DNA of 64,000 nucleotides from an uncultured bacterium. GTDB lineage: Bacteria; Actinomycetota; Acidimicrobiia; Spongiisociales; UBA5794. Where the stretch lies: positions 4,265-68,264 of the forward strand of contig CBDUNF010000001.1 of NCBI GenBank assembly GCA_965368515.1, written 5' to 3'. How positions within the stretch are numbered: the first letter of the stretch is position 1; the number at the start of each line of letters is the position of its first letter. A program made the translations under genes and the position numbers. The notes beneath the pieces were generated by a model. The model saw only the letters and a list, made by a program, of their open reading frames with translations. It was not told the origin of the DNA and did not search any database. Below, in pieces: positions 18,972 through 50,167 of the stretch.

Positions 18972-19826
18972 TCAGTCGGCCGACGTCAACGGCAATCGGG
19001 GATCCGGACCGAGCGCTTGCAAAGATGCCATCGCCGGTTCCTGCCGGGGATCGTTGCAGATGCTCCACTTGCGCTCGGGCGATGGACCCGCCATCACGTT
19101 CAAGTAGTACATGTGGTGTCCGGGGAACGCCGCCGCCGGACCATGGAACCCTTTCGGGACTAGAAATGTATCGCCGTCGCGAACGGTTACGGTCTCACCG
19201 ATTTCGCCATCCATTGTGTAGCAGGTGAAGAACCCCGAGCCGTTGCTGCCGTCGATCCTGAAGTAGTAGATCTCTTCGAGTTCGACCTCGGTGTCGGACA
19301 TCTCGTCATGCTTGTGGGCCGGATACGACGACCACCCACCTTCCGGAGTGAGTACCTCGACGGCGATGAGCTTGTCCGCTTCCCATGATGCGGCGTTGAG
19401 GAAGTTGTTGATCTGCCGTGATGCGGTGCTCGCTCCACGCACCTCAACTGCCACGGCCTTCGCCGGCACAACATACGGGTCGATGCGGCGCGTCGCCTCG
19501 GCGCGACACAGAGCAATCTCGCCACCAGTTGTCGACGTGATCCGCATCTCCGTGTCGATTGGCACATACGCAAAGCCGCTGATGCCCGCAAAGACGTTGT
19601 CGCGCCCGTCGACGTCAAACCGTTTGCCCTCGACCTCGACCGTGCAGCTACCTGCAAGCGGGAGAACCGCAACCTCGGCAGACCCGGTGGCCACCGTTGT
19701 GCTGGCCCCTGCGGTCAGGTCGAGTACTGAGAGACCGCAGTAACTCCATCCGGCCAAGCCGGGATCGATGTCGACAAGCATGCCCCCGTCAGCCGTCGAA
19801 CCGGCCGGATGAAAGAGTTGTGCCAT
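18972..19826 (-). CDS. iolB: 5-deoxy-glucuronate isomerase
   Basis: IolB/KduI-like cupin signatures KHDEMSDTEVELEEIYYF and HHMYYLNVMAG; AAGGAG RBS 7 nt upstream of ATG at 19826. Confidence 0.85.
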   Translation of the reverse strand: MAQLFHPAGSTADGGMLVDIDPGLAGWSYCGLSVLDLTAGASTTVATGSAEVAVLPLAGSCTVEVEGKRFDVDGRDNVFAGISGFAYVPIDTEMRITSTTGGEIALCRAEATRRIDPYVVPAKAVAVEVRGASTASRQINNFLNAASWEADKLIAVEVLTPEGGWSSYPAHKHDEMSDTEVELEEIYYFRIDGSNGSGFFTCYTMDGEIGETVTVRDGDTFLVPKGFHGPAAAFPGHHMYYLNVMAGPSPERKWSICNDPRQEPAMASLQALGPDPRLPLTSAD

Positions 19827-19836
19827 CACCGTCTCC

Positions 19837-19850
19837 TTGGAACGTTCCAA
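19837..19850. promoter_or_regulatory. 14-bp palindromic operator TTGGAACGTTCCAA (copy 1), overlapping the iolB RBS
   Basis: Perfect palindrome with central AACGTT; identical sequence at four other promoter-proximal sites. Confidence 0.6.
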
Positions 19851-19937
19851 CATGTTGAACCTAATCGGCGGCGCTGGGTGCTGTCAACGCGGTCGAGGCG
19901 CTTGACATACTCGTACCCGGGTGTTTAGCGTGGCTTA

Positions 19938-19951
19938 TTGGAACGTTCCAG
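19938..19951. promoter_or_regulatory. operator copy 2 (TTGGAACGTTCCAG), ~50 nt upstream of iolG and just downstream of a TTGACA...TAGCGT promoter-like pair (19902-19931)
   Basis: 13/14 match to the palindrome; position relative to a candidate -35/-10. Confidence 0.5.
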
Positions 19952-20001
19952 ACAAATCTCGGCGGTCTGATTGATCTGCGGGGAGATGGAAGAGGTGACG
20001 G

Positions 20002-20991
20002 ATGCGGATCGGTCTTATCGGTGCAGGCCGGATCGGGCTCTTTCACGGGCAGACCCTGGCGGTTCATGAAGAGGTCAGCGGGATTCTGGTGAGCGATCCG
20101 CTGATCGAGCGGGCCAAGACATTGGCCGCCGACATCGGTGCCGAGGTAGCTCCCGATGCCGATGCGATGATCGGCGAGATCGACGCCATGGTGGTCGCCG
20201 CCGCGACGGACGTGCACGCTCCGATGATGCACCTAGCCGCCGACGCCGGGATCCCCGTCTTCTGTGAGAAGCCGATCGCCGTCGATCTCCCCACAACCGA
20301 TCTGGTTGTCGACCACATCCGGCAGGCGGGCATCCCCGCACAGATCGGATTCCAACGCCGGTTCGATGCGGGTTATCGCGCCGCCAAAGCCAGGGTCGAC
20401 GACGGCACACTCGGACACCTCTACTCGGTTCGCACCACAACTCACGATCACGAACCTCCCCCGCCCGGGTATGTCGACACAGGAATCTACGTCGATACCC
20501 AGATCCACGACTTTGACATCATCAGGTTCGTCACCGGCCAAGAGGCAGTCGAGGTCTATGCCGCCGGGTACACGACCACCGCGGACGCCTTTGGCCCCGA
20601 CCGCCCGATCGACACCGGCGTTGTCGTTCTCTCGTTGAGTGATGGAACCCAGGCTTTGATGTCGGGGATCCGCCACAATCCGGTCGGACACGATGTCCGC
20701 ATGGAGTTGTTTGGCGTCGAAGACAGCGTCAGCGTCGGGCTGCACCCGAGCCTCCCACTGCGTTCCGTCGAGCCGGGCGGTCTCGCCATCGTCGAACCGA
20801 CGCCGAAGTCCTTCCTGGATAGGTTCGCCCCGGCTTACAGAGCCGAGATCGAAGTGTTCCTAAACGTGGCTCAGGGACGGATCGAGAGCCCATGCACCCC
20901 CGAAGATGCCCGTGCGGCGCTGCGCATTGCGATTGCCTGCAATGTCTCACGCGCCGAGCACAGACCCGTTCGATTGGAGGAAGTGGCATGA
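20002..20991 (+). CDS. iolG: myo-inositol 2-dehydrogenase-like Gfo/Idh/MocA oxidoreductase
   Basis: MRIGLIGAGRIG Rossmann motif, EKP motif; divergent from iolB and followed by an iolE-like gene and an inositol-type ABC transporter. Confidence 0.75.
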   Translation: MRIGLIGAGRIGLFHGQTLAVHEEVSGILVSDPLIERAKTLAADIGAEVAPDADAMIGEIDAMVVAAATDVHAPMMHLAADAGIPVFCEKPIAVDLPTTDLVVDHIRQAGIPAQIGFQRRFDAGYRAAKARVDDGTLGHLYSVRTTTHDHEPPPPGYVDTGIYVDTQIHDFDIIRFVTGQEAVEVYAAGYTTTADAFGPDRPIDTGVVVLSLSDGTQALMSGIRHNPVGHDVRMELFGVEDSVSVGLHPSLPLRSVEPGGLAIVEPTPKSFLDRFAPAYRAEIEVFLNVAQGRIESPCTPEDARAALRIAIACNVSRAEHRPVRLEEVA

Positions 20992-21869
20992 CAGACATGA
21001 TGTCGCGGATAGCCGGGGCACCGATTACGTGGGGTGTGGACGGCTCCCCTGGTTGGGGCCACCTGATGGATCCCGATCGCGTCCTGGGTGAGATGGCCGC
21101 GCTGGGGTTGAAGGCGACGGAGTTGGGGCCCGATGGTTACCTGCCGATCGATCCGGCCGAACTCAAAGCGAAGCTCGATGGCTACGGCCTCGAGTTGGTT
21201 GGCGGGTTCGTGCCTGCGGTGCTTCACATTCCAGAGCGAGCTGAGGGTGACCTCGCCTATGCGGCCCGGGCGTCGAAGACGCTGGCCGGATGTGGTGCGA
21301 GCGTTCTGGTGCTTGGCCCCGGTTCCGGACTCGACGGTTACGACACATCGATTGACATGTCGGACACCGATTGGGGCATTTTCCTGGGTAACCTGAAACA
21401 TGTGATCGCTGCTGCGGCCGACGAGGGTTTGACAGTTGCCTTGCACCAACATTGGGGCATGGCCATTGAGACCCCGCAACACGTGGAGCGTTTGATTGCG
21501 CAGAGCGACGTCGAATTTTGTCTCGATACCGGGCACCTATACCTAGGAGGTGCCGATCCCGTTGCGATCGCCAAAGCCGCCGTCGGTCGGGTGGCCCATG
21601 TGCACCTCAAGGACGTTGACGAAGCGATGGCCAACCAGGTTCGACGCGGCGAACTGCCATTCCGCCAGTCAGTTATTGACGGCATTTTCAAGCCGCTTGG
21701 TGATGGCGCAGTCGACATCGCAGGCTTTGTCGGAACACTCGAAGAGGCCGGCTTTGACGGTTGGTATGTCCTCGAGCAGGACAAGGTTCTCGATGCAGAT
21801 CCGCTTCCAGGCGAGGGCCCGATACAAGACGCCCGAAAGAGCTTCTCGTATCTGGCGGGGTTGAGCTAG
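20988..21869 (+). CDS. sugar phosphate isomerase/epimerase (xylose isomerase-like TIM barrel); candidate inosose dehydratase IolE
   Basis: TIM-barrel AP-endonuclease-2 family pattern (HLKD, VLEQD); ATGA overlap with iolG. Confidence 0.65.
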
Positions 21870-21982: not shown

Positions 21983-23005
21983 ATGAAAAGAAGTGTATGG
22001 CTGGTGTTGCTGCTGGCCTTCGCCCTGATCGTCGGAGCCTGCGGTGGCGACGATGACTCGACAACCACCGCTGCCGGTGACGACGCCACGGAGACGACCG
22101 CAGACGGCGGCGGCGACGCTGTGACCCAGCGCAGCTTGCGCATCGTTGTTGTCTCGCACGGTCAAGCGTCCGACCCGTTCTGGTCGGTAGCGGCCAACGG
22201 TGTCAGCGATGCTGGTGATGACATGGGAGTCACCGTTGAGTACCAGTCGCCGGGGACGTTCGACATGGTCGAGATGAGCCAGATCATCGATGCGGCCGTT
22301 GCGTCGCAGCCGGACGGTTTGGTTGTATCAATTCCCGATGCGGCGGCTCTTGGTGATTCGATTCGGGCCGCCGTTGCGGCTGGTATCCCGGTCATCTCGA
22401 TGAACTCGGGTAGCGACGCGTTTGCCGATCTTGGCGTGCTGGTCCATGTTGGCCAGACTGAGTACGAGGCCGGGCTCATTGCCGGTCAGCGCTTTGCCGC
22501 CGAGGGAGTTGGCAGCGCCATCTGCATCAACCAGGAAGTTGGTAACACCGCACTCGATGACCGCTGCCAAGGCTTCGAAGACGGTCTCGGCGTGGACGTC
22601 AACGTCATTCCTGTGGATCTCGCCGATCCGACGGGCACCCAGGAAACTGTTGCTGGTGCGTTGCAGGCGAATCCGGTTGAGGGAATCCTGACGCTGGGCC
22701 CGACCGGCGCTGCGCCGACCCTGGCCGCGCTGACCGAGAACGGCATGCTGGGAACTATCAAGTTCGCCACGTTCGACATGTCTCCTGACGTGCTGGCCTC
22801 GATTGTCGACGGCGACATGCTGTTCGCCATCGACCAGGCGCAGTACCTGCAGGGCTACCTGCCGATCGTGCTCCTGACGAAGTACGCCGAAACGGGCGCA
22901 CTGCCCTTGGGCAGCGTTGACCGTGTCATCCTGACCGGTCCGCAGATCGTCACCGCAGACGTGGCAGCAGACGTAATCGCCTACTCGGAGCAAGGCCTCC
23001 GCTAA
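21983..23005 (+). CDS. sugar ABC transporter substrate-binding lipoprotein (ribose/inositol-binding type I PBP)
   Basis: Lipoprotein signal [16 protein letters not shown]; periplasmic-binding-protein type I sequence; GGAGGAGGAACAAGGG RBS. Confidence 0.8.
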
Positions 23006-23074
23006 TCGAACGAACTGGCTGGGACCCGCTACGGCGGGTCCCAGCTCTATCCGCAAGAACGGAGGGAGGATTGC

Positions 23075-24151
23075 GTGACCACTGAAACGGCGCCGGCAAC
23101 AGCGCCGGCACCACCGAGCGACGAAAGAGTCAGGCAGGTTGGACTGCTCAGCCGGCTGCTGGCTCGTCCCGAGGTTGGGGCAATCGTTGGGACGGCCCTG
23201 ATTTGGGTGTTCTTTGCGATTGTCGCCTGGGACAACAACTTTGCAAGCTGGGTGACGACGGCCGCCATCTTCAATCGGGCGGCCCCGCTTGGCATTCTCG
23301 CCATCGCGGTCGCGCTGCTGATGATTGGTGGCGAGTTCGATCTGTCGATCGGCTCGATAGTGGGCTTCGCCGGCATGACGATAATGATCCTCGTCTTCCC
23401 CAGCGAAGGCGGAGGCTTTGGCTGGTCGCTGTGGCCGGCCATGCTCGTAGCGCTGGTCTTCGCCCTGACGATTGGGTTGTTCAATGGCTGGCTGGTGATG
23501 GCAACCAAGCTGCCATCGTTCATCATCACCCTGGGCACGCTATTCGTATTCCGCGGTTTGACCATCGCGGTGACACGTCTGTTGACCAACCGCACCCAGC
23601 TCGGTGGCGCTGACGAAGTGTCGGGCTTCGGCTTGGCCGACTCGATCTTCGCTGCGGAAATCGGTCTGTTCGGGGCGTCTTTCCGGATCTCCATCCTTTG
23701 GTGGATCGGCCTGACAGCTCTAGCTACCTGGATCCTCCTGCGCACCAAGCAAGGCAACTGGATCTTCGGTTCCGGCGGCGATGACAACGCCGCTCGCAAC
23801 CAGGGTGTTCCGGTCACCCGGACCAAGGTCGCACTCTTCATGACCACCGCGTTCGCCGGGTTCCTTGTGGCATTGATTCAGGTTGTGCAGTTCACCGGTG
23901 CTGACACCTTGCGAGGCCGGCAGCAGGAGTTCTTTGCGATCATTGCCGTGGTCATCGGGGGCACGCTGCTCACTGGTGGCTACGGGTCTGCGATCGGGGC
24001 GTTCTTTGGTGCGCTGATCTTTGCGATGGTGCAGCAAGGCATCATCATCACCGGTGTCGACGGTGACTGGTTCCAAGTCTTCGTCGGTGGCATTCTGATT
24101 ATCGCCGTGATCTTCAACAACTTCGTACGGCAGAAGGCGGCACAACGATGA
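23075..24151 (+). CDS. ABC transporter permease (RbsC/monosaccharide type)
   Basis: 10-TM branched-chain/ribose-type permease pattern; GTG start. Confidence 0.8.
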
Positions 24152-25017
24152 GTGGCAACGGCACCCCACTTCTGGAAATCAAGAACGTCTCCAAGTACTT
24201 CGGTAGCGTCATTGCGTTGCAGGATGTGTCGGCGTTTGTGCGTGCCGGTGAGGTCACCTGTCTCCTTGGCGACAACGGTGCCGGGAAGTCGACCCTGATC
24301 AAGGTTTTGGCCGGTGTCCACAAGCCGACCGAAGGCGAGTACTTCTTCGATGGTCAAGCGATGGATTTCAGCTCGCCGCGCGACGCTTTGGATCACGGCA
24401 TCGCCACCGTCTATCAGGACCTGGCCATGATCCCGCTAATGGCTGTGTGGCGGAACTTCTTCCTAGGGGCCGAGCCCACCAAGGGCTGGGGTCCCTGGCG
24501 GCGATTCGATGTGGATCGGGCCAAGGAGATCACTGTCACCGAGCTGGGCAAGATGGGGATCCAGATTCGGGATCCCGATCAGACGGTCGGAACGCTTTCG
24601 GGTGGTGAGCGCCAGTCGGTGGCTATCGCCCGTGCGGTCTACTTCGGCGCCAAGGTGCTGATTCTCGATGAGCCGACCGCGGCCCTCGGTGTCAAGCAGG
24701 CCGGTGTGGTCCTCAAGTACATCTTGCAGGCACGCAACCGGGGGATCGGTGTGATCTTCATTACCCACAACCCGCACCATGCGTACCCCGTTGCGGATCA
24801 CTTCGTGATCCTGCGTCGTGGAACCGTGTACGGCGACTACACGAAGGAAGAACTCCCGCTCGAGCAACTGGTCCAGATGATGGCCGGCGGCGCCGACCTC
24901 GAGGTGCTCCAGCATGAGCTGGAGGCAGCATCACGTGAAGGCGAAGAGGGGGCCGATACGCTCAAGGAGACTGCGGCGAGGATCGGCTCCGAGCTCGAGG
25001 AGCTTGGGGAAAGCTAA
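24148..25017 (+). CDS. sugar ABC transporter ATP-binding protein
   Basis: Walker [10 protein letters not shown], signature LSGGERQ, Walker [12 protein letters not shown]; ATGA overlap with the permease gene. Confidence 0.85.
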
Positions 25018-25051: not shown

Positions 25052-25594
25052 TCACGATCCGAGTCCCCAGTCGCGGACGACTATCACCGCAGCGTCTGTG
25101 AGTTGGATCCCGGCGCGATGGCTACGTCGCTCTTCCACCAACTCAACTATCGCTTCGGCGTACTGCTCCGAGGGTGTGGTCTCCCACGTGTCTGCTTCGA
25201 ACCAATCAACGGAAGGCGAAAAACCCTGCGCTGCGAGAAACGCTGTGCGGAGATCCTCGTGCTCTGGGCAGGTGAATTCGACATGATGGGCAAACTCATG
25301 CAGCAGTTCGCTGCGCAGGGTTGCCGGGGTCCCCGGCACCCGAACCACGATTGTCTCCGTAGCCGGCCGGTATTCGCCACGATTATCGAGCTCCCACGCT
25401 GCCGCCAGGGTCGGAGACGGGATGCAATCACGACGACCCGGCACCGCGGCGAGAAAGTCGCTCCAGGCCTCGAGAGCCAGCTCGCGCAGGTCACCGGGGA
25501 CTGTGTCGTCAAAGTGGAGGTCGGCGGAACCACCGCCGCAACCGGTGAGGCCGACGAATGCGATCAAGGCTGTCGAGAAGAGGCGGCGGAGCAC
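25052..25594 (-). CDS. HExxH-motif lipoprotein (putative zinc metallopeptidase-like); start uncertain (GTG)
   Basis: Lipobox LIAFVGLTGCGGG after a positive N-region; LLHEFAHHVEF zincin-like motif; no canonical RBS. Confidence 0.4.
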   Translation of the reverse strand: MLRRLFSTALIAFVGLTGCGGGSADLHFDDTVPGDLRELALEAWSDFLAAVPGRRDCIPSPTLAAAWELDNRGEYRPATETIVVRVPGTPATLRSELLHEFAHHVEFTCPEHEDLRTAFLAAQGFSPSVDWFEADTWETTPSEQYAEAIVELVEERRSHRAGIQLTDAAVIVVRDWGLGS

Positions 25595-25654
25595 ATAATG
25601 ACAATAACCCGAGGCTCGGCGCACGCAGCCCGAGCGACCAAGTGAGGTGTTGCG

Positions 25655-26038
25655 ATGAATGACATCACGATCATGATTCCAGAGCGCGGTGGGGCAGTTC
25701 CCGAGGTGTGGGAGGCTCTCGGTGCTGCTGCCGTTTCTGTCGAGGCGGCGCTCTCGTTTTCCCGAGAACATCACCGCGTCGTCCATGTCGTTGTTGCTGA
25801 CGAAGCGGTGGCGCCCGCACGTGGCGCTCTCGAATCTGCCGGTTTCCTCATCGTGGATCAGCGTGAAGTCCTGCTGGTCGACCTGGCGGATCACCCCGGA
25901 GGCCTCGCTGAGGTAACCCGGGTCGCGTATGACTCGGGCGCCGGCGTCTACCTACTGTCGATGGCCACCGAGAACCGGGTGATGCTTGGCGTCGCCGACC
26001 TCGAAGCAGCACACCGCGCCTTTGGCAGGGCCAAATGA
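25655..26038 (+). CDS. ACT-domain-like small protein (paralog of 18580-18960), translationally coupled to the gluconolactonase gene
   Basis: 127 aa; alignable to the other copy along its full length; GAGGTG RBS. Confidence 0.45.
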   Translation: MNDITIMIPERGGAVPEVWEALGAAAVSVEAALSFSREHHRVVHVVVADEAVAPARGALESAGFLIVDQREVLLVDLADHPGGLAEVTRVAYDSGAGVYLLSMATENRVMLGVADLEAAHRAFGRAK

Positions 26039-26907
26039 AGGTCGAATGCGTCCTCCCCGCAAAAGCCGATCTGGGGGAGTGCCCGGTGTGGAGTCCGGCG
26101 GACGAACTCCTCTACTGGGTGGATATCGATGGTCGTGCGGTTCACGCCTTCGACCCATCTCTGGGCACCGATCGGAAGTGGCAGCTGGAGGTGCGTCCCG
26201 CAACCATCGCCAGAACCAACGATCCAAAGCGGTTGCTTGTTGCCGCAGAGAACGAGCTGGCGTGGCTGGCTCTGGATACCGGCGAGCTGACGTCGTGGGT
26301 GAGTCTCGAAGAGTCAAAGGAAGGCATCCGACTCAACGACGGACGTTGTGACCCGGCAGGCCGGCTGTGGATTGGCGGCATGTATGTGCCAACGTCGGCG
26401 ATGAGATTCGAAGCCTTCTTGCACCGGGTTGATCCCGATGGCAGCTTCGTCACGGTCCGTAGCGAGGTCGGTTGTGCCAACGGGTCGGCCTTCTCGCCGG
26501 ACGGATCGGTGATGTATTGGGCCGACACGCTGCACGGAATCGTGTGGGCATACGACTATGACATAGATACCGGGAATCAACACAACGAGCGTGTCTTCTT
26601 GGATTTCGCCCCGCTGCCCGGCAAGCCCGACGGAGCATGTGTGGATGAAACCGGCTGCTACTGGGTCGCGTGTGTCGGTGGTGGGGCGGTCGCCCGGATC
26701 ACGCCGCACGGTGATGTCGATCAGGTAATCGACGTTCCTGTGATTCGACCCACCATGCCTGCCTTCGGGGGTCCCACTCTGGACACGCTCTACATCACAA
26801 CCATTGGTGTCCGCGATCCGGCGCAGGACGGCCCCGGTGACCACGGTGGCATCTTCGCCTTCAACCCCGGGGTACGAGGGCTGCCTGAGCCGGTGTTCGG
26901 CGGGTAA
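26035..26907 (+). CDS. SMP-30/gluconolactonase/LRE family protein (sugar lactonase)
   Basis: Six-bladed propeller lactonase blocks (GECPVWS, NDGRCDPAGRLWIG, PDGACVDETGCYWVA). Confidence 0.8.
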   Translation: MKVECVLPAKADLGECPVWSPADELLYWVDIDGRAVHAFDPSLGTDRKWQLEVRPATIARTNDPKRLLVAAENELAWLALDTGELTSWVSLEESKEGIRLNDGRCDPAGRLWIGGMYVPTSAMRFEAFLHRVDPDGSFVTVRSEVGCANGSAFSPDGSVMYWADTLHGIVWAYDYDIDTGNQHNERVFLDFAPLPGKPDGACVDETGCYWVACVGGGAVARITPHGDVDQVIDVPVIRPTMPAFGGPTLDTLYITTIGVRDPAQDGPGDHGGIFAFNPGVRGLPEPVFGG

Positions 26908-36338: not shown

Positions 36339-36347
36339 CTGAGGCTG

Positions 36348-41543: not shown

Positions 41544-42379
41544 GCCCGCTCGAGATTCTCGGATCCGCGTTGATGGTGTCCGGCGCGGGCCTTTCCGCTC
41601 TTGCTGCATGGGGTGTTCTCGATTTTCCATCGGCCCTGGCGCGAATGCACGCAGCGACCAAGTCGGCCTCCCTTGGCCTGGCGCTAATCGCCATGGGCGC
41701 GGGGTTGGCCGCGGAATCGGCCGGCCTGGCCGGCGTCAGCCTGCTCATGGCTGTGTTCTTGTTCATGACGGCTCCGATCTCGGGCCACATGCTCGGCAGA
41801 GCCGTCTATTCCGCGGGGCAGGCCACAGGGCTCGTCCACGACGACATGCCCAAGACGTCACCACAGCCGCTTCGGTTCGTGCAGGGCGAGCGGTCCCGCT
41901 TCTCCATTAATCGTGCGTTGGTTCTCACCACGGTGTGGGTCCTCCTGTGGCGGGACGCGAGTCCCGGTGTCTGGGTCGGGGGGCTGGTGGTGGCTGCGGC
42001 GATAGAGGCGGTTCGCCGCACCCGGGAGCGACCGTCACGAATTCGAGTTGGTGGTCTTCTTCGCTTCGTGGTCTATTACCTACGGATGGTCGTGCTCTCC
42101 AACCTTCGCGTAGCTTGGGAGGTGGTCACCCCGAACAACGACCAGATCAGCGAGGCGATCGTCGCAGTTCCATTGCGGACAGAGTCGGTCCAGGCAGCCC
42201 TATTGGTGGCCAATGCGATCAGTTACACACCAGGCTCCTTGACGATCGATCTGTCGGAGAGCCCGTTGGTGCTCTATGTCCATGTACTCCACTTCGAGTC
42301 GGCTGATGCCATCCGGAGCGAGGTTGCCGAACTCGAGGACCTAGTAGTCACTTCGGTCGCCGGGTCGGTGCGCACGTAG
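41540..42379 (+). CDS. fused Na+/H+ antiporter subunit G (N-terminal) and subunit E (C-terminal)
   Basis: N-terminal half matches MnhG (ILGSALMVSGAGLSALAAWGVLDFPSALARMHAATKSASLG); C-terminal half matches MnhE (YTPGSLTIDLSE...LYVHVL); ATGA overlap with mrpF. Confidence 0.65.
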   Translation: MSPLEILGSALMVSGAGLSALAAWGVLDFPSALARMHAATKSASLGLALIAMGAGLAAESAGLAGVSLLMAVFLFMTAPISGHMLGRAVYSAGQATGLVHDDMPKTSPQPLRFVQGERSRFSINRALVLTTVWVLLWRDASPGVWVGGLVVAAAIEAVRRTRERPSRIRVGGLLRFVVYYLRMVVLSNLRVAWEVVTPNNDQISEAIVAVPLRTESVQAALLVANAISYTPGSLTIDLSESPLVLYVHVLHFESADAIRSEVAELEDLVVTSVAGSVRT

Positions 42380-42455
42380 GGGGTCACGCTGCCGTTGCTG
42401 TCGTGTCGATGGCCATGGGCCCGAATCCCCCGGACGACCGGGGTCGAAGCCCAGT

Positions 42456-44306
42456 TCAGTGCTCTCCCTTTTCGGAGCCCCACGCTGCGGCGGTGATGTC
42501 GCTGCCGGCCGAAGGCTTTGTCTGCACCGGCATACCGATTGCCAATACCTCTTCGCCATCGCGAACCTCGCGATTGGATGAGAAGACATCGCAGCCCTGC
42601 GCCGACCGGACTACTAGCGGCAGGCTCTGCACGTCGGGCCGCGGTGTGCCTCGTGGCGTCTTGCGAACAACCTCGTCCGGGTCGGCGACCGTATAGGCGA
42701 GATCGACCACGTTCTCTGCCATCACGGCAACATCCCAAACTGTCAGGTCGACGCAGCGTCCGAAGAGCTGCTCTCCGGCAACCTCGTCGAGCAGGCGTGT
42801 CATGCTTTGTGTCGCCTCCGGTGGCATCGCCACATGAATGCTGGGTACGCCGAAGCGCTGCTTGGCGAGGCGTGCGGTAAGGAGGTTGACCTCGGCATTG
42901 GTAGTGGCTGCTACGAGCGCCGTCGCGTGCGAGGCGCCTGCCTCCTCCAGGACGTCATCATCGATCGCGTTTCCTTTGACAACCATCAGTCCCCGTTCGG
43001 TAGCTGAGCGCAGATGATCGGAGTTGGTGTCGATCATGACCACATCGGTGTGCTCGGCCAGCAGCACCGCCATCCGCTGAGCCACCGGTCCGGCTCCGAC
43101 GAACACGACGCCGTTGCGATCGTCTGCGACAAGCTCGCCACGATCCCTCAGGTGGTTGATTGCCCTAGTGAGGAACACCGGCACCGTTGCCGTCGTGAAG
43201 ACCGCCATGAACACGAGTATCGAGAAGATGCGTTCATCGATGATCCCTGCCGTCAATGCGATCTCGGCGACGATGATCTCTACTGCGCCGCGCCCGTTCA
43301 TGCCGGCACCGACCGCCACTCCCTCCCGGAAACCGTATCCGGTCGGAAGGTAGAAGATTGCAGTTCCGACGATCTTGCCGGCCGTCGCGAGAACGATGAC
43401 CGTAACCACGAGGGGGAGGGACTCGGAAATCACCGAGAAGGAAACCTTGAATCCCGCGGTCACGAAGAAGACCGGGGCCAACAGCCCAACGGACACGTTT
43501 CGCGCCCGACTCTCTACAGCATGGAGTTGATCGTGAGTGAGGACATCGGACCTTATGAATAGGCCTGCCAGGAAGGCGCCGAGGATGCCGTGAAGCCCGG
43601 CGGCTTCTGCTGCGGCAGCGTAGGCCAGGCCGACACCGACAACCGCAATGAAGAGAACCGACTGGTCGATTTTCATCCTGGCAACGACCTTGCCGATACG
43701 GGGGAACACTTTCATGCCGACCAGCCAGGCACCGGCTAGGAACACTGAGGCTTTGGCCACTGTTGCCAGTACTCCGGCGAGGGCGATAGTGCCAGTCGCG
43801 GCGAGTCCGAGGAGCGCAGCAAAGAAGACGAGAGCCGCGATGTCGGAGAACAGCGCACCCGCCATCAGCACATGGGCGATTCGTGTGTTCAAGATGCCGA
43901 GATCGACCAGTATGCGCGACTTCGTGGCCAATGACGTAACCCCCATTGCTACGGCCACGAATGAAGCGGCGACCGCGTCCCCCTCAACGAGCATCATCAA
44001 ACCGAAACCCAAACCGGCAGGCACTATGAACCCGCCCAGTGAGGCGAGCAGCCCGGGGCGGGTGGCGTTGCCGATTGAGGTTGGGTCGAGGTGGATGCCG
44101 ATATAGAGCATCAGGAGCGTTACGCCGAGCTTGCCGATGACGGTGATGGCATCATCGGTCGCGAGCAGTCCCAGCAGGGGAGGGCCCAGTGCGATCCCCG
44201 CCGCTAGTTCCCCCAGGATCGAGGGGTAGCCGAGTCTCCGCGCCAGCCAACCACCGGCAAGGGCAGCTGCCAGCACCAACATCAGATTCATGGGGTCGAG
44301 GCTCAT
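42456..44306 (-). CDS. cation:proton antiporter (CPA2, KefB-like) with C-terminal RCK/TrkA-N and TrkA-C domains
   Basis: N-terminal 12-13 TM Na_H_Exchanger domain; GVVFVGAGPVAQRMAVLL Rossmann (RCK) motif. Confidence 0.85.
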   Translation of the reverse strand: MSLDPMNLMLVLAAALAGGWLARRLGYPSILGELAAGIALGPPLLGLLATDDAITVIGKLGVTLLMLYIGIHLDPTSIGNATRPGLLASLGGFIVPAGLGFGLMMLVEGDAVAASFVAVAMGVTSLATKSRILVDLGILNTRIAHVLMAGALFSDIAALVFFAALLGLAATGTIALAGVLATVAKASVFLAGAWLVGMKVFPRIGKVVARMKIDQSVLFIAVVGVGLAYAAAAEAAGLHGILGAFLAGLFIRSDVLTHDQLHAVESRARNVSVGLLAPVFFVTAGFKVSFSVISESLPLVVTVIVLATAGKIVGTAIFYLPTGYGFREGVAVGAGMNGRGAVEIIVAEIALTAGIIDERIFSILVFMAVFTTATVPVFLTRAINHLRDRGELVADDRNGVVFVGAGPVAQRMAVLLAEHTDVVMIDTNSDHLRSATERGLMVVKGNAIDDDVLEEAGASHATALVAATTNAEVNLLTARLAKQRFGVPSIHVAMPPEATQSMTRLLDEVAGEQLFGRCVDLTVWDVAVMAENVVDLAYTVADPDEVVRKTPRGTPRPDVQSLPLVVRSAQGCDVFSSNREVRDGEEVLAIGMPVQTKPSAGSDITAAAWGSEKGEH

Positions 44307-44404
44307 TGTCAGGCTCCCCTCGGCTGTTACACGTCAACGGATACACGAAACATAATACGTGTTACAATAGTCGTCAACCACCATCCTGAAACAGGAGGGA
44401 GAAC

Positions 44405-45364
44405 ATGAAGCGCTTCAAGAACATCCTCGTTGTCGCAGAAAAGGACGACGGTCAGACACGCTCGCTGCTCCACGCGGCCGTCGATATGGCTCGTCGCAAC
44501 GGTGCGGTGCTAACTGTGTTCTCGGTTGTCGACGAAGTCTCGGAGCTACGTCGCTATCTCAAGACGAAGAGCGGTCGAGTGGATCTGGTGAATCTGATGA
44601 TTGAAGGCAGAATCGCCGAGCTACGAGCAGCAACTCCGCAGACCGACGTCTCAGTGCACTACGAGGTGAGGAGCGGCATCCCGTACCTCGAGGTCATCGA
44701 CAGGGTCGGTCTCTACGGGCATGACCTCGTCCTGACCGTCCCCATGCCACCAATCCGGAAGATCGGCCTTGGTTCTTCGTCGACGACGATGCACCTGTTG
44801 CGCAAGTGCCCGGTGCCCGTCTGGGTGCATTCACCGCTGTCGGCGACAGCCGATGCGCTGCTTGTTGCGATCGGGCCGTTCGGCGCAGCGACAGAGGAAT
44901 TGAACGTGAGGCTGCTGGAACTGGCATCGTCGCTGGCACGGACCACCGGTAGCGAGCTTCACATCGTCCATGCCTGGAGGATCGAAGGAGAGACAATGCT
45001 CCGCAGTCCTCGCTTGGCCTATACGACCAAAGAGATAGAAGCGATGGGCACAGAGGCGCAGCAGGCCGCTGCAGCCGGGATCGAAGCCTTGCTCGACCAG
45101 GTCGATGTCGCGGCCTCCAGTCGGATCCACGTTCTGAAAGGTCACGCCGGGGATGTGATCCCCGCCCTTATCGACGAAATCAACCCGAACGCGGTCGTAA
45201 TGGGAACTGTCGCTCGAACCGGGATACCCGGCCTGATAATCGGCAACACCGCCGAACGTGTCCTCGCCACAGTCGACCGAACTGTTCTCGCAGTCAAGCC
45301 GGACGGGTTTGTCTCACCGGTCGGTGGCGTCTTGGATTGGCACGCCACTCACCTGCCCTACTGA
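44405..45364 (+). CDS. universal stress protein (tandem UspA domains)
   Basis: Two Usp domains, each with the ATP-binding G-x2-G-x9-G(S/T) region (MGTVARTGIPGLIIGNTAERVL). Confidence 0.8.
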   Translation: MKRFKNILVVAEKDDGQTRSLLHAAVDMARRNGAVLTVFSVVDEVSELRRYLKTKSGRVDLVNLMIEGRIAELRAATPQTDVSVHYEVRSGIPYLEVIDRVGLYGHDLVLTVPMPPIRKIGLGSSSTTMHLLRKCPVPVWVHSPLSATADALLVAIGPFGAATEELNVRLLELASSLARTTGSELHIVHAWRIEGETMLRSPRLAYTTKEIEAMGTEAQQAAAAGIEALLDQVDVAASSRIHVLKGHAGDVIPALIDEINPNAVVMGTVARTGIPGLIIGNTAERVLATVDRTVLAVKPDGFVSPVGGVLDWHATHLPY

Positions 45365-45428
45365 GTTCTCAGGTCACAATTCGTGTTCGGCGGCCAATGG
45401 CGTGAAGCCAGTCGTGGCGTGGCCTCCT

Positions 45429-45442
45429 TGGAACGTTCCAAC
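45429..45442. promoter_or_regulatory. operator copy 4 (TTGGAACGTTCCAA), ~40 nt upstream of the SDR-iolC-iolB2-aldolase operon
   Basis: Perfect 14-bp palindrome. Confidence 0.6.
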
Positions 45443-45482: not shown

Positions 45483-46292
45483 ATGGGTCGGTTCGACGGC
45501 AAGATCGCTCTCATCACCGGGAGCACGCAGGGCGTAGGTGAGGCCGTCGCCCGCCGTCTCGCAGTCGAAGGGGCTGCCGGCATCGTCGTGTGTGGCCGTA
45601 ATCAGAGTCGGGGGGAGACGGTTGCCGGAGCTCTGGCGGAAGCAGGGACGGCGGCGCTATTCGTACCGGTCGAACTTGGTGATGCGGAGAGCTGCCAGCG
45701 TCTGATTGCCAGCGCTGATGAGCAGTTCGGTCGCATCGATGTGTTGGTCAACGCGGCGGCTCTCACTCTGCGCGGTTCGATCATCGATACCTCGGTCGAA
45801 TTATGGGACCTGATAATGAACGTCAACCTGCGCGCTCCCTTTCTATTGATGCAGGGTGCGATCAAGATCATGAGGCGGGAAGGAAGCGGGGGCACCATCG
45901 TCAACGTCGGCTCAGTTGCATCGCACGGCGGTGCCCCGATCCTCATGCCGTATTCCGCATCGAAGGCAGCCTTGGCGGCCATGACCAAGAATGTGGCGTA
46001 CTCAGTTGCCTGGGACGGCATCCGCGTCAACTGCATCAACCCGGGCTGGATGGACACGCCGGGTGAGGACGATATCCAGCGACGCTTCCACACCGACGGG
46101 CAGGATTGGCTCGACAAAGCTGAGGCAGGAATGCCATCCGGGCAGCTCATCAAGACCGACGAGGTTGCAGCCGCCATCGCCTTCCTAGCATCCGGTGAAT
46201 CCGGCATCATGACCGGCTCGGTTGTCGACTATGACCAATCCGTCGTCGGCGCCGGCAACGCCCCGGTTCCCAAACGGGAGGAGACACCGTGA
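45483..46292 (+). CDS. SDR family oxidoreductase
   Basis: TGSTQGVGEAVA motif; YSASKAA catalytic YxxxK. Confidence 0.85.
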   Translation: MGRFDGKIALITGSTQGVGEAVARRLAVEGAAGIVVCGRNQSRGETVAGALAEAGTAALFVPVELGDAESCQRLIASADEQFGRIDVLVNAAALTLRGSIIDTSVELWDLIMNVNLRAPFLLMQGAIKIMRREGSGGTIVNVGSVASHGGAPILMPYSASKAALAAMTKNVAYSVAWDGIRVNCINPGWMDTPGEDDIQRRFHTDGQDWLDKAEAGMPSGQLIKTDEVAAAIAFLASGESGIMTGSVVDYDQSVVGAGNAPVPKREETP

Positions 46293-47287
46293 CATACGAT
46301 CTCATCACCGTCGGCCGGGTCAACATGGATCTGTTTGCTCAGGATATCGGCGCCGACTTTGCCGACATCACCGGCTTCGATGCGGCGGTAGGGGGCAGCC
46401 CTTCCAACATCGCCATGGGCACCAGCCGGCTTGGTTTGACGACAGCCGCGTTCACCGCAGTCGGCGACGACACGGTCGGCGACTTTGTGCGCCGTTTCCT
46501 CGGCGACATGGGTGTCGTGACTGATTTTGTTGCAACCAAACCAGGGAAGCGGACCTCGCTGGCCCTGGTCGGCGTGCAGCCACCCGATCGGTTCCCGCTC
46601 ACGTTCTATCGCGACGATCCGGCCGACATCTACCTGACTATCGATGATGCTTCTGCGCTGCCGTTCGGCAGCACCTCGGCTGTCCTGCTGTCCGGCAATG
46701 CCTTCAGCCGAGGCACCTGCGCTGACGCCGCTCGTCGCGCTGCGGAACGGGCGGGGCACTTCGGGCTGACCACGTTCATGGATCTCGATCTGCGGCCGAC
46801 CGACTGGTCCCATCCCCATGCGTTCGGTCTGACCCTGCGTCCCGTGCTGCCGTGGGTCGATGTCCTGATCGGCACCGAAGAGGAGTTCTTTGCGCTGCTC
46901 GCCCCCGATCCCGGCCCTGTGGCGACTGGCGCCCCGGTCACGGCCGTCGACAGGAACGTCCTCGAGCAGCTTGTCGGGGTCCTGCTCGAGACGGGAACTG
47001 TGGGGACGGTGGTCCTCAAGCGGGGGGCCACCGGTGCGACGGTCCTCACCGGGTCGGAACGTATTGACGTTCCGGGTTTCCCGGTCGATCCCGTCAACAC
47101 GGTCGGTGCGGGTGACTCATTTGCGTCGGGGCTCATCTGGAGTCGGCTCCGTGGCGACGATTGGTATCGGGCGTGTCGATTCGGCAACGCTTGTGGTGCC
47201 ATCGTGGTTACCCGGCATGGCTGTGCGGTGGCCTTCCCTACCGAGCAAGAGGTCGTCGAGTTCGTGACAGGCGCGGGAGGGTTCTAG
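46289..47287 (+). CDS. iolC: 5-dehydro-2-deoxygluconokinase (PfkB family)
   Basis: PfkB carbohydrate kinase motifs (N-terminal GG, C-terminal VNTVGAGDSFASG); GTGA overlap with the SDR gene; context with iolB and aldolase. Confidence 0.75.
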   Translation: MTYDLITVGRVNMDLFAQDIGADFADITGFDAAVGGSPSNIAMGTSRLGLTTAAFTAVGDDTVGDFVRRFLGDMGVVTDFVATKPGKRTSLALVGVQPPDRFPLTFYRDDPADIYLTIDDASALPFGSTSAVLLSGNAFSRGTCADAARRAAERAGHFGLTTFMDLDLRPTDWSHPHAFGLTLRPVLPWVDVLIGTEEEFFALLAPDPGPVATGAPVTAVDRNVLEQLVGVLLETGTVGTVVLKRGATGATVLTGSERIDVPGFPVDPVNTVGAGDSFASGLIWSRLRGDDWYRACRFGNACGAIVVTRHGCAVAFPTEQEVVEFVTGAGGF

Positions 47288-48171
47288 TGGTTCACAAACT
47301 GACATCAACCGAGGGCCCCGGTCGGGTCCTGGAGGTCACCCCCGAGATCGTCGGCTGGGATGTCCTCGACTTCTCCGTCATGGTGCTCGAAGCCGCGGGA
47401 CGGTGGGCGATGACCACAGGTGGTCGCGAGGTCGCAGTCGTGCCTCAAGCAGGATCATTCGTTGCCCACGTCGGCGAACAGAGCTTCTCTCTCAACCGCT
47501 CCAGCGTCTTTGCAGAGATGGCCTCCGTTCTGTATCTCCCACCGAACACGGAGCTCACGGTTGAGGCGGCTACCGATGCCGAGTTTGCGATCGGCGGTGC
47601 CCCTGCCGAGGGCAAATACCCGGTGCGTCTATTCGATCCGTCGGAGATGAAGACTGAAGTCCGCGGGGGCGGTGGCGCCACTCGTCAGGTGAACCACATC
47701 CTGGCGCACCCGCTACCCGCCGAGCGCCTGATCCTCTATGAGGTCTATGTACCTCGTGGCAAGTGGTCTGGCTGGCCCCCTCATTGCCACGATGGCTACG
47801 AAGGCTCGCCCTATCTAGAAGAGACCTACTACTTCCGTTTCGATCCACCCAACGGCTGGGGCATGCACCGCAACTACCGGCTCGACAACGACTTCGATGA
47901 GGTGTTCTCGGTCAGTGACCGGGATGTGGTCATGGTCACCCAGGGGTTCCACTCCAGCGCGGCGTCACCCGGCAACCACATGTATTTCCTCAACTATCTG
48001 GCGGGGAAGCCGTGGGACGAAGCGCGCGCCATTCCGCCTTTCTTCCAACCAGAGTACCGATGGATCGACGGCAACTGGGATCAGGATGCAATGACCCTTC
48101 CCGCAGTGACTCCGACCCCCCAGCCCGGTTCCGCCGGCGGTGGCTTTCCTCGAGAGCGAGGGCTGAAATGA
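47287..48171 (+). CDS. 5-deoxy-glucuronate isomerase family protein (second, divergent IolB copy)
   Basis: HCHD...YLEETYYFRF and GNHMYFLNYLAG IolB-type cupin motifs; GTG start overlapping the iolC stop. Confidence 0.75.
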   Translation: MVHKLTSTEGPGRVLEVTPEIVGWDVLDFSVMVLEAAGRWAMTTGGREVAVVPQAGSFVAHVGEQSFSLNRSSVFAEMASVLYLPPNTELTVEAATDAEFAIGGAPAEGKYPVRLFDPSEMKTEVRGGGGATRQVNHILAHPLPAERLILYEVYVPRGKWSGWPPHCHDGYEGSPYLEETYYFRFDPPNGWGMHRNYRLDNDFDEVFSVSDRDVVMVTQGFHSSAASPGNHMYFLNYLAGKPWDEARAIPPFFQPEYRWIDGNWDQDAMTLPAVTPTPQPGSAGGGFPRERGLK

Positions 48172-49154
48172 GTCTGCCGACAATCACACCGGGCAAGGCG
48201 AGGGGTTTGGCTGCAACTTCTTCGGCGGGCGGGATCTTCAAGGTGCTTGCAGTGGATCATCGTGATTCGATGCGTGTCCTGATCGAACCAGAGAATCCAC
48301 AGGTTTTGGCTGCCTCTCATCTGACGGAGGTCAAGCTCGACTTGCTGCGACAGTTGGGCGCCGATGCCACTGCGATCATGCTTGATCCGGAGTACAGCGT
48401 CGCCCAAGCCATCGTGGCGCGGGCGCTCCCCGGCAGTGTGGGTTTCCTCGCAGCCGTTGAAGCCCAGGGGTATCTGGGCGACCCGACGGCGCGGCAGACC
48501 TCTCTTCTCGACGGCTGGGGAGTCGAGAAGGCAAAGAGAGTCGGTGCCAACGCCATCAAGCTCCTCGTGCTGTATCGGCCGGATGCCGGTGCTGTGACAG
48601 AGGCCCAGGACGAAGTGATCAAGGCCGTTATCGCCGACTGCGCCCGCTACGACATTCCGCTATTCCTCGAGCCGCTGGCGTATGCCACCGAACCTGGAGT
48701 CGCCACCGGTTCCTCCGAGTTCGCCGCGATTCGTCGCGGCCTGGTTGTGGAGACCGTTCGTCGCCTGGGGGCCCTCGGCCCCGATGTCTTGAAGGTTCAG
48801 TTTCCCGTAGACACCCGCCACGAGCCGGACCGGGTGGCCTGGGCAGACGCTTGCGCCGAACTCGATGCAGTTGCCCCAGTGCCTTGGGCGCTGCTGTCTG
48901 GAGGTGATCCGTACGATCTGTTTCGTGACCAAGTTCGCATCGCCGCCGAGGCGGGTGCGTCGGGTTTCCTCGTGGGGCGGGCACTGTGGGGCGACTACAT
49001 CTCCGCCGAGTCCGCAGACAAGCCGCACATCATGGAGGAGACGGTGCGGCCCCGGCTTGCCGAGTTGTCGGCCCTGGCGGATGAGTTCGGCCATGACTGG
49101 GCTGATCGGTACCGGTTGCCGGAGATCGACGAGCGCTGGTTCACGACCTACTAG
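48168..49154 (+). CDS. class I aldolase of the tagatose-1,6-bisphosphate aldolase (LacD) family; candidate 2-deoxy-5-keto-gluconate-6-P aldolase
   Basis: Blocks matching LacD (VLAVDHRDSMRV, IMLDPEYSV, GANAIKLLVLY, DIPLFLEPLAYA); ATGA overlap with the preceding gene. Confidence 0.7.
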   Translation: MSLPTITPGKARGLAATSSAGGIFKVLAVDHRDSMRVLIEPENPQVLAASHLTEVKLDLLRQLGADATAIMLDPEYSVAQAIVARALPGSVGFLAAVEAQGYLGDPTARQTSLLDGWGVEKAKRVGANAIKLLVLYRPDAGAVTEAQDEVIKAVIADCARYDIPLFLEPLAYATEPGVATGSSEFAAIRRGLVVETVRRLGALGPDVLKVQFPVDTRHEPDRVAWADACAELDAVAPVPWALLSGGDPYDLFRDQVRIAAEAGASGFLVGRALWGDYISAESADKPHIMEETVRPRLAELSALADEFGHDWADRYRLPEIDERWFTTY

Positions 49155-50167
49155 TCGCCGGCTTTAGGAAGCTGGAGATCGGCTGCGGCAAAGAGCCGTT
49201 CGATGATCTTCATGTTCGCCACCGATCCAGAAGCCGGTACCGGCGATGGGCTACCCGACACGACGGCGTCCGCCAGCGCAGTCGCCTGGAGTCCGTATTG
49301 GTTGGCAACCGGCACTTTCGTAGAGGTGACCGTCGATGCGTGTGGGTGATGATTTCCGCTCGTTCCGATCGTGATCTGCGTCTCGTGATGTGGAGGGCAG
49401 TTGAAGGGATCGGCGATCGACAGCCATCCACCCGTCCCGTGGATGACGACGCGATGCAGAGGTTCTTGTTCCATGGAACAGGTGAACGAAGCGATGCCGG
49501 TGCCGTAGTCGAGAACGGCGCTGAACGTCAGGTCGACTCCGCTGACAGGATCGATACGCGCCGTTCCTAGTACGTGTTCCGGCTGGTCGCCCAGCAACAT
49601 GCGGCTGACGTCTACCGCGTAACATCCAACGTCGTACAAAGCGCCCCCGCCGGATGTGGCGTCGTGGCGGTAGTCGGTTGGTCGAGTCGACCGGAACGAG
49701 AACCAGACGTCGACGTCGGTGACTGTCCCGATCGTGTTGGCGGCGAGGAGCCGTTTGGTCTCAACCCATGCCGGGTGGAAGCGGTACATGAAAGCTTCCA
49801 TCACGAGCACGCCACGATCGGCGCAATGGCCGATGACCGCTTCCGCCTCCGCCGCGGTCAGCGTCAGCGGCTTCTCACAGAGGATGTGCTTGCCCGCATC
49901 GGCAGCCCGCATTATCCACTCCGCATGCAGATGGTTTGGTAGTGGGATGTACACGCAGTCGATATCGGGATCGGCGAGCAGGTCGTTGTACGAGCCGTAC
50001 GCCCTGGCGATGCCAAACTCCTCAGCTACATCTTCTGCGCTGAGCAGAGATCGGGATCCGATTGCCAACAGGTTGCAGCGCTCTGCGTCGAGCAGCGCAG
50101 GGATGACGTGAGCCTTGGCAATGAGCGCAGTGCCGAGGACACCCCAATTGAGGCGGGAGTTGGTCAT
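49151..50167 (-). CDS. Gfo/Idh/MocA family oxidoreductase
   Basis: LNWGVLGTALIAK N-terminal motif, CEKPL motif. Confidence 0.8.
   Translation of the reverse strand: MTNSRLNWGVLGTALIAKAHVIPALLDAERCNLLAIGSRSLLSAEDVAEEFGIARAYGSYNDLLADPDIDCVYIPLPNHLHAEWIMRAADAGKHILCEKPLTLTAAEAEAVIGHCADRGVLVMEAFMYRFHPAWVETKRLLAANTIGTVTDVDVWFSFRSTRPTDYRHDATSGGGALYDVGCYAVDVSRMLLGDQPEHVLGTARIDPVSGVDLTFSAVLDYGTGIASFTCSMEQEPLHRVVIHGTGGWLSIADPFNCPPHHETQITIGTSGNHHPHASTVTSTKVPVANQYGLQATALADAVVSGSPSPVPASGSVANMKIIERLFAAADLQLPKAGD

Follow-up and report, generated by a model that had tools for sequence, protein, structure and literature searches.

How does a bacterium complete its inositol pathway when the genes for the last two enzymes do not lie with the rest? 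The question is raised by a stretch of 64,000 nucleotides, called the window below, from an uncultured bacterium of the Acidimicrobiia (Spongiisociales, UBA5794; GenBank assembly GCA_965368515.1, contig CBDUNF010000001.1, positions 4,265 to 68,264). The window carries inositol catabolism (iol) genes, but neither iolJ, which encodes the class II aldolase, nor iolA, which encodes methylmalonate-semialdehyde dehydrogenase (MMSDH). Inositol from the turnover of phytate, membranes and compatible solutes is a major carbon source in soils and sediments, and genome surveys score its use by iolB, iolC, iolD and iolE together with IolJ or IolA. In the present study, we consider it probable that the organism follows the classical phosphorylative inositol route, with a non-orthologous class I aldolase standing in for IolJ and with IolA encoded outside the window.

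The gene calls are those attached to identical metagenome contigs (ENA assemblies ERZ250434xx), and the GC content of the window is about 62%. For comparison, one genome per GTDB species was scanned with an alignment of aldolase homologs, which gave 80 loci (numbered L below), and the open reading frames (ORFs) of these loci were classified by phmmer against the window proteins. Scores for the iol families were read against the curated NCBIfam equivalog cut-offs. The nearest relatives of the window are metagenome-assembled genomes of Acidimicrobiia.

Core inositol genes

The genes for uptake and for the early steps of the pathway are as follows (strand in brackets).

18972-19826 (-): iolB1, 5-deoxy-glucuronate isomerase paralog 1, 284 aa; TIGR04378 278 bits, cut-off 205
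20002-20991 (+): iolG-like Gfo/Idh/MocA (GFO) dehydrogenase, 329 aa; TIGR04380 271 bits, cut-off 355
20988-21869 (+): iolE-like inosose dehydratase, 293 aa; TIGR04379 165 bits, cut-off 290
21983-25017 (+): ATP-binding cassette (ABC) importer; binding protein 21983-23005, permease 23075-24151, ATPase 24148-25017
31110-32954 (+): iolD, trihydroxycyclohexanedione (THcHDO) acylhydrolase, 614 aa; TIGR04377 817 bits, cut-off 715
45483-46292 (+): SDR2, short-chain dehydrogenase (SDR), 269 aa; PRK06198 377 bits, cut-off 240; PDB 4nim 286 bits
46289-47287 (+): iolC, 5-dehydro-2-deoxygluconokinase, 332 aa; TIGR04382 313 bits over residues 3-325, cut-off 300
47287-48171 (+): iolB2, 5-deoxy-glucuronate isomerase paralog 2, 294 aa; TIGR04378 227 bits, cut-off 205

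An earlier description of this DNA from its letters and reading frames (the original prediction) had named iolC, iolD and two divergent iolB copies, and all four genes pass their family cut-offs, the two IolB proteins sharing 35% identity. Its iolG and iolE-like genes held up in part: TIGR04380 and TIGR04379 are the best families for the two, the sole PDB matches of the second protein are the IolE proteins 9zmu and 3cny, and the IolG-IolE pair is kept in relatives. The binding protein of the importer resembles rhizopine substrate-binding proteins (NF052284, 338 bits, under the cut-off of 420), and its permease and ATPase match sugar ABC families.

The genes are tightly packed. An ATGA overlap joins the iolG-like to the iolE-like gene, spacers in the operon that contains iolD measure 2-31 nt, and overlaps of start and stop codons (GTGA, TAGTG, ATGA) run through SDR2-iolC-iolB2-aldolase, that between SDR2 and iolC being GTGA. 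The ATG of iolB1 at 19826 is preceded by an AAGGAG ribosome-binding site, with an operator just upstream.

The two IolB types occupy different places in the relatives. The IolB2 type is positioned between iolC and the aldolase gene, and the IolB1 type lies elsewhere near the cluster (L011, L025, L027, L031, L033, L038), L031 also sharing with the window the layout in which iolB1 diverges from the IolG-IolE pair. Among the 80 loci, just L062 has both types, as the window does; otherwise they are alternatives, and a cluster with one type is complete in all other respects. Most simply, IolB1 and IolB2 would be isofunctional paralogs that came together when two cluster layouts were combined in this genome.

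A LacD-family aldolase, probably in the place of IolJ

Downstream of iolB2, and overlapping it by 4 nt in an iolC-iolB2-aldolase operon, lies the gene on which the argument turns.

48168-49154 (+): stand-alone LacD-family class I aldolase, 328 aa, candidate 5-dehydro-2-deoxyphosphogluconate (DKGP) aldolase (EC 4.1.2.29); PRK12858 237 bits, cut-off 184; PF01791 86 bits, cut-off 23.8

In a full-length alignment, its K131, E168 and K209 fall on K126, E164 and K206 of LacD (5f2l numbering), namely the catalytic lysine, the glutamate and the Schiff-base lysine, and these three residues are invariant across 18 homologs. Its best PDB matches are 8tnf, annotated as DUF2090 (133 bits), LacD (105 bits) and the sulfofructose-phosphate aldolase YihT (99 bits). 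The genomic context of the homologs follows their similarity to the window protein: iolC and/or iolB lies within 1.2 kb of the aldolase gene in 31 of the 32 loci that score at least 400 bits against it, in 12 of 17 at 310-400 bits, and in one of 31 below 310 bits, where the aldolases pair with a different PfkB kinase. The close orthologs that adjoin iolC or iolB span Acidimicrobiia, Chloroflexota, SAR324 and Bryobacterales, and minimal clusters of Chloroflexota and SAR324 (e.g., L036) hold this aldolase and no other.

A class II aldolase of the IolJ kind was found neither among the called genes of the window nor, as a PROSITE-type signature of class II fructose-bisphosphate aldolases, in its six frames, and the ORFs of all 80 related loci likewise lack a class II signature. 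There is also no aldolase fused to the C-terminus of IolC, which in the window is a kinase domain alone, without DUF2090; the aldolase is a separate gene. The absence of iolJ, claimed in the original prediction, is thus borne out for the window, as is the presence of a LacD-type aldolase. We find the missing IolJ best explained as a non-orthologous displacement by this aldolase, whose substrate would be DKGP.

The whereabouts of IolA

The absence of iolA from the window was confirmed as well: tblastn with the IolA proteins of relatives returned nothing in the window (best E 0.055), no aldehyde dehydrogenase (ALDH) gene was called, and no ALDH signature occurs in the six frames. The short flanks beyond the window, which hold an acetyltransferase gene and two genes beside a cation-efflux gene, also contain no ALDH. 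Several relatives do carry IolA (TIGR01722, 563-744 bits, cut-off 448.5), and each group of them carries it in a different place. In L057 and L060 it stands directly upstream of the iolC-aldolase genes; in L017 and L020, which belong to the closest syntenic relatives, it comes directly after the LacI gene, which has an operator upstream; and in L033 and L066 it is near the cluster. The corresponding site in the window, directly after the LacI gene (end at 51252), is taken by a DUF192 gene (start at 51273), as it is in L014 and L026. Since the position of IolA varies in this way among relatives, its absence from 64 kb is no sign that the genome has no IolA, and the IolA of this organism is presumably encoded outside the window.

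Other genes of the closest syntenic relatives were also not found in the window. L014, L017 and L020 have a gene of about 600 aa for an AMP-binding, acyl-CoA-synthetase-like protein after the aldolase, and L017 and L020 carry an extra GFO gene besides the MMSDH (IolA). The coordinates of these AMP-binding, extra GFO and MMSDH genes are the following.

L014: 11011-12807
L017: 10219-13034 and 15195-16706
L020: 4316-7131 and 9292-10803

This CoA ligase may be a hint that malonate semialdehyde or 3-hydroxypropionate is metabolised in another way.

The proposed route

Put together, the genes would support the following sequence of steps. Inositol would enter through the ABC importer, a GFO dehydrogenase would oxidise it, the IolE-like enzyme would dehydrate the product, and IolD would open the ring. 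IolB1 or IolB2 would then isomerise the IolD product and IolC would phosphorylate it. The resulting DKGP would be split into dihydroxyacetone phosphate and malonate semialdehyde by the LacD-family class I (Schiff-base) aldolase rather than by IolJ, as its residues and its gene neighbours suggest, and malonate semialdehyde would pass to the IolA encoded outside the window.

Five points weigh against this reading. IolA was not found for this genome, where our view covers the window and its short flanks. The iolG-like and iolE-like proteins score under their equivalog cut-offs. The source databases name the aldolase clade tagatose-1,6-bisphosphate aldolase. The window aldolase falls under the Pfam threshold for DUF2090, so that its link to the DUF2090 aldolase is one of homology and context only. 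Finally, five conserved and co-regulated enzymes, which are described below, receive no role in the explanation.

Operators and the presumed LacI-type regulon

The iol genes are tied together by a 14-bp perfect palindrome, TTGGAACGTTCCAA, which occurs with 0-1 mismatch at five sites in the window, all of them in promoter regions; the observed count was matched in 0 of 100 shuffles. The sites and the repressor gene beside the last of them are listed here.

19837-19850: operator 1, TTGGAACGTTCCAA, perfect; upstream of iolB1
19938-19951: operator 2, 1 mismatch; upstream of the iolG-like/iolE-like/ABC operon
28101-28114: operator 3, perfect; upstream of the operon of a D-2-hydroxyacid dehydrogenase (2-HADH) gene, GFO_L, HpcH, iolD and SDR1
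45428-45441: operator 4, perfect; upstream of the SDR2-iolC-iolB2-aldolase operon
50191-50204: operator 5, 1 mismatch; between GFO_3 and the LacI gene
50245-51252 (+): LacI-family repressor, 335 aa; PF00356, PF00532, PF13377

The same palindrome stands at the same positions in the relatives, including the position between the lactonase and the 2-HADH gene. The site of operator 2 is also occupied in L027, L031 and L048; operator 3 is kept upstream of the 2-HADH gene in L011, L012, L014, L023, L024, L027 and L048; more than 12 relatives have operator 4 ahead of SDR2; and most relatives have operator 5 at 16-41 nt before the LacI gene, which closes the array there too. The LacI-family protein is presumed to control the regulon through the palindrome.

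One member of the locus stands apart in the window. The lactonase had been assigned to an operator-marked operon, and we do not retain that assignment: the operator at 28101 lies downstream of the lactonase and of the alpha/beta hydrolase gene that follows it, and because no operator precedes these two genes, both are outside the operator-marked units here. In relatives, the lactonase comes after the operator-controlled IolG-IolE pair.

Contiguous arrays in relatives and an inserted block

The original prediction described a split, non-canonical inositol gene complement. The gene set is indeed non-canonical, but the split has a plainer origin. In about 25 loci of Acidimicrobiia and allied groups the genes form one contiguous array, in the order [IolG IolE] [lactonase] 2-HADH GFO_L [HpcH] IolD SDR1 SDR2 IolC [IolB2] aldolase [GFO_3, reversed] LacI, where the bracketed genes are missing from some loci. 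Minimal arrays occur in Chloroflexota and SAR324, L036 being reduced to GFO_L-IolD-IolE-IolC-IolB-aldolase. Because the relatives have the contiguous array, the split in the window is an 11.7-kb insertion of unrelated material between SDR1 and SDR2.

33944-45364: inserted block; DUF4332, TetR, zinc-dependent alcohol dehydrogenase, MarR, Mrp Na+/H+ antiporter, Kef and universal stress protein genes

The Mrp system of the block has seven subunits (36718-42379), the Kef gene (-) is of the K+ efflux type, and the universal stress protein has tandem domains. An Mrp antiporter lies directly upstream of SDR2 in L026 as well; in L017 and L020 that place holds only a TauE gene.

The accessory module and the rival readings

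The genes that the proposed route leaves without a role, together with the hydrolase and with the third GFO gene under the operator, are listed below.

26035-26907 (+): SMP-30/gluconolactonase-family lactonase, 290 aa; PF08450 271 bits
27098-28027: alpha/beta hydrolase with a hydrophobic N-terminal segment, between the lactonase and operator 3
28167-29117 (+): 2-HADH, 316 aa; phosphoglycerate dehydrogenase family 251 bits, glyoxylate reductase family 199 bits, both under cut-offs
29149-30324 (+): GFO_L, 391 aa, of the clade of levoglucosan dehydrogenase and scyllo-inositol dehydrogenase; NF052479 304 bits, under the 650 cut-off
30337-31098 (+): HpcH/HpaI-family class II pyruvate-type aldolase (HpcH), 253 aa; PF03328
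32957-33754 (+): SDR1, short-chain dehydrogenase, 265 aa; PRK08265 279 bits (cut-off 294), glucose 1-dehydrogenase PRK07231 202 bits (cut-off 215)
49151-50167 (-): GFO_3 oxidoreductase, 338 aa, divergent from the LacI gene; PF01408, PF22725, PF02894; PDB 4had 203 bits

As had been predicted, HpcH clearly belongs to its aldolase family and the SMP-30 lactonase to its own. The best PDB matches of the lactonase are regucalcin and the xylonolactonase 7plb, and in the relatives examined its gene directly adjoins that of the 2-HADH. The latter enzyme, with 1wwk and 2cuk as best PDB matches, resembles short phosphoglycerate, glycerate and glyoxylate dehydrogenases. GFO_L matches the levoglucosan dehydrogenase 6a3f (262 bits) and the scyllo-inositol/L-glucose dehydrogenase 5ya8 (226 bits) best, and in minimal clusters (L035 and L036, for example) our queries found no other GFO. 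For HpcH, the closest characterised enzymes are HpaI, YfaU and GarL, with HpaI and YfaU as best PDB matches; its family scores (HpaI 167, GarL 148, RhmA 123 bits) are all under the cut-offs (369, 407 and 441, respectively). GFO_3 is kept beside the LacI gene in L014, L017, L018, L020 and L026. The 90%-identity protein cluster of SDR1 also contains many 614-aa IolD sequences, probably as the result of a merged gene call.

Across the relatives, the lactonase, 2-HADH, GFO, HpcH and SDR form a conserved, separable and co-regulated module that the phosphorylative route does not need. In L034 it is a separate operon, GFO(-)-operator-lactonase-2-HADH-HpcH-SDR1, under the same palindrome and beside GFO_L-IolD-IolC-IolB2-aldolase-LacI; in L095 (JGI 3300045502, 1-13401) the order is IolE-lactonase-2-HADH-GFO-HpcH-IolD-SDR, and neither IolC nor the aldolase lies within 10 kb. 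Several clusters that are identical in other respects (L011, L025, L027, L030-L032) lack HpcH, the entire module is absent from minimal Chloroflexota clusters, and an HpcH ortholog of 65% identity stands alone in an unrelated context in L094. By analogy, the module would have the logic of an oxidative sugar route, minus the dehydratase.

Two further observations concern this module. In L095 it adjoins a DegT/DnrJ/EryC1 aminotransferase gene and three further GFO genes, a setting that hints at the catabolism of aminocyclitols (inosamine type); the binding protein in the window, as noted above, resembles rhizopine-binding proteins. An HpcH-IolD fusion of 873 aa in L012 (3843-6464), considered as Rosetta-stone support for a joint function, was rejected on comparison with L013 (522-3143): L012 has CGA where L013, 99.92% identical, has TGA, which makes the fusion either the product of one substitution or an error of sequencing.

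What, then, might the additional enzymes do? It is possible, though we would not call it probable, that the extra oxidoreductases only broaden entry into the pathway, admitting scyllo-, D-chiro- and other inositols or methyl-inositols, and that the lactonase and HpcH are bystanders or repair enzymes. The clade of GFO_L and the three GFO genes under the operator speak in its favour, and several inositol dehydrogenases per organism are documented, for instance in Corynebacterium glutamicum (PMC9603128). The proposal that several inositol isomers feed in survives to this extent: judging from the relatives of GFO_L, the dehydrogenases could admit more than one isomer. However, such broadened entry offers no reason for lactonase, 2-HADH, HpcH and SDR1 to remain one unit in L034, and the dehydrogenation of inositols gives inososes, not lactones or 2-keto acids.

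A role for the module as a whole is offered by an undescribed additional branch for cyclitols in Acidimicrobiia, oxidative and non-phosphorylative and running parallel to that of IolB, IolC and the class I aldolase; this we regard as unlikely. As one example, our guess and a doubtful one, 5-deoxy-D-glucuronate could be turned into its lactone, 5-deoxyglucarate and a 2-keto acid, and then split into hydroxypyruvate and malonate semialdehyde; alternatively, the branch could serve a related aldose or a cyclitol-derived sugar. The operon of its own in L034 and the isolated module in L095 fit such a branch. So does the set of enzymes, which agrees with known oxidative sugar routes save for the dehydratase; on chemical grounds, the IolD product would already be a deoxy compound. 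In addition, NCBI calls an SDR in the same 90% cluster a glucose 1-dehydrogenase. Against it, we found in the literature no biochemical precedent, no link of HpcH to inositol and no oxidation of 5-deoxyglucuronate. The branch would moreover duplicate what the co-expressed IolB/IolC/aldolase branch does, several clusters manage without HpcH, and the L012 fusion lends it no Rosetta-stone support.

Far less credible is the proposal of the original prediction that the lactonase, the dehydrogenases and HpcH replace IolJ and IolA in an oxidative, non-phosphorylative route. It could draw on the lack of iolJ and iolA in the window and on the retention of lactonase, 2-HADH, GFO, HpcH and SDR in iol clusters, with the operon that contains iolD under the shared operator. 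Nevertheless, IolC and a dedicated, iol-linked class I aldolase are present in overlapping frames, and relatives with the same module also have IolA beside the cluster; the lactonase and HpcH therefore need not replace IolJ and IolA. The loci that dispense with HpcH or with the whole module, and the ortholog in the unrelated context of L094, tell against the replacement too, and we do not regard it as supported.

Least of all do we expect that the aldolase serves another sugar, acting on tagatose-1,6-bisphosphate or sulfofructose phosphate, and lies beside iol genes by chance, since, for all that the sources call it tagatose 1,6-diphosphate aldolase, that LacD and the YihT/sulfofructose-phosphate aldolases are clear homologs (99-105 bits) and that more distant Chloroflexia homologs pair with a non-IolC PfkB kinase, almost every close ortholog adjoins iolC or iolB, the gene overlaps iolB2, and the window holds no genes for tagatose, galactose-6-phosphate or sulfoquinovose.

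Comparison with known systems

The reference system is the myo-inositol pathway of Bacillus subtilis, iolABCDEFGHIJ (Yoshida et al. 2008, as cited in PMC9007349 and PMC6741124). The window shares with it the predicted chemistry of IolG, IolE, IolD, IolB and IolC, the last three passing the equivalog cut-offs. It differs in having a class I LacD-family aldolase in place of the class II IolJ, no iolA in the cluster, a LacI-type repressor with a 14-bp palindrome, an ABC importer, two IolB paralogs, and the module of lactonase, 2-HADH, HpcH and SDR.

A closer parallel for the aldolase is DUF2090, a LacD-related domain fused to IolC that was proposed from fitness data as an alternative DKGP aldolase (Price et al. 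2022, GapMind/RB-TnSeq, PMC9007349). The two have in common a LacD-related class I fold, the same Lys and Glu residues, and a tie to IolC where IolJ is absent. Unlike the IolC-DUF2090 proteins of proteobacteria, however, the window aldolase is encoded by a gene of its own, usually separated from iolC by iolB, and it has no match to PF09863 (DUF2090) at E<=10; on that family its relatives reach 25.5 bits (P0098) and 18.6 bits (P0086), against a gathering threshold of 27. It thus appears to resemble the DUF2090 aldolase by context and homology while not being a member of PF09863. GapMind had left aside proteins that score better on DeoC or LacD than on DUF2090 (PMC9007349), and the window aldolase, unfused and assigned to PF01791/PRK12858, is such a case. 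Literature on PDB 8tnf and on cg0198/Cgl0159 yielded nothing useful beyond the GapMind paper and the Gaiella genome paper, and cg0198 was named only 'conserved hypothetical protein'.

Like LacD and YihT/SqiA, the window aldolase belongs to PF01791; it is about as long as they are and has the same catalytic residues, and the PDB scores are 99-105 bits. In contrast, its identity to them is low, its context is iolC/iolB and not lac/tagatose or sulfoquinovose genes, and its presumed substrate is a 2-deoxy-5-keto-aldonate 6-phosphate.

The same gap has been met in other deep-branching Actinomycetota. Growth on myo-inositol is reported for Gaiella occulta and Solirubrobacter soli, whose iolABCDEG genes are not accompanied by iolJ (PMC6741124), as in the window. 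The authors of that paper suggest that an unannotated aldolase fills the gap, and they name no candidate (PMC6741124).

As for the module, GFO_L matches the Paracoccus enzyme LgdA (5ya8) and levoglucosan dehydrogenase (6a3f) over its full length, at 226-262 bits, but it lies far under the equivalog cut-off for levoglucosan dehydrogenase (304 against 650 bits). Oxidative, non-phosphorylative sugar routes include the Weimberg and Dahms pathways and the L-rhamnose pathway LRA1-4, which uses an HpcH-type aldolase. The module resembles these in its sugar dehydrogenase (GFO or SDR), its SMP-30 lactonase and its HpcH-family aldolase. Unlike them, it has a D-2-hydroxyacid dehydrogenase where a sugar-acid dehydratase would be expected, and it lies inside an inositol regulon beside IolD.

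Implications

The new findings are limited in reach but tangible: a LacD-family candidate DKGP aldolase that is unfused and widespread in uncultured lineages, and a defined LacI-type regulon, with its repressor and 14-bp palindrome, that includes a conserved five-enzyme module. The distribution of the aldolase suggests that Acidimicrobiia, Chloroflexota, SAR324 and Bryobacterales close the inositol pathway with a stand-alone LacD-family enzyme. If our reading of the aldolase is true, the enzyme is mislabelled as tagatose-bisphosphate aldolase in databases, the DUF2090 proposal would extend to an unfused form, and a concrete candidate is at hand for the 'missing IolJ' of deep-branching Actinomycetota.

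Neighbouring genes

Between the importer and the lactonase lies one gene without a family match.

25052-25894 (-): gene without a family match, 280 aa

Upstream of the regulon, the stretch 6041-15518 holds a separate sugar or sugar-acid gene set that has no iol operator.

ABC binding protein and two permeases (-)
about 7724-8656: D-2-hydroxyacid dehydrogenase (2-Hacid_dh), outside the regulon
about 8666-9328: aldolase of the transaldolase/fructose-6-phosphate aldolase (TAL/FSA) type
end at 10745: L-fucose-isomerase-like gene
10759-11778: glyceraldehyde-3-phosphate dehydrogenase (GAPDH)-like gene
11791-12864: GFO, outside the regulon
12883-14353: SAF domain and altronate/galactarate-type dehydratase
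14523-15518: Ldh_2 gene

This cluster probably accounts for two counts in the original prediction, which had placed two D-2-hydroxyacid dehydrogenases and four GFO genes in the operator-marked operons. Of the dehydrogenases, the one at 28167-29117 is in range and the second is the gene at about 7724-8656; three GFO genes are in range, and the count of four falls, as the fourth is the gene at 11791-12864.

On the other side, a few kb 3' of the iol regulon, lies an ssb-rpsR-rplI-dnaB block (59837-62419). Its position is kept in L014, L017, L020 and L026, and the regulon therefore occupies a stable chromosomal site in this lineage.

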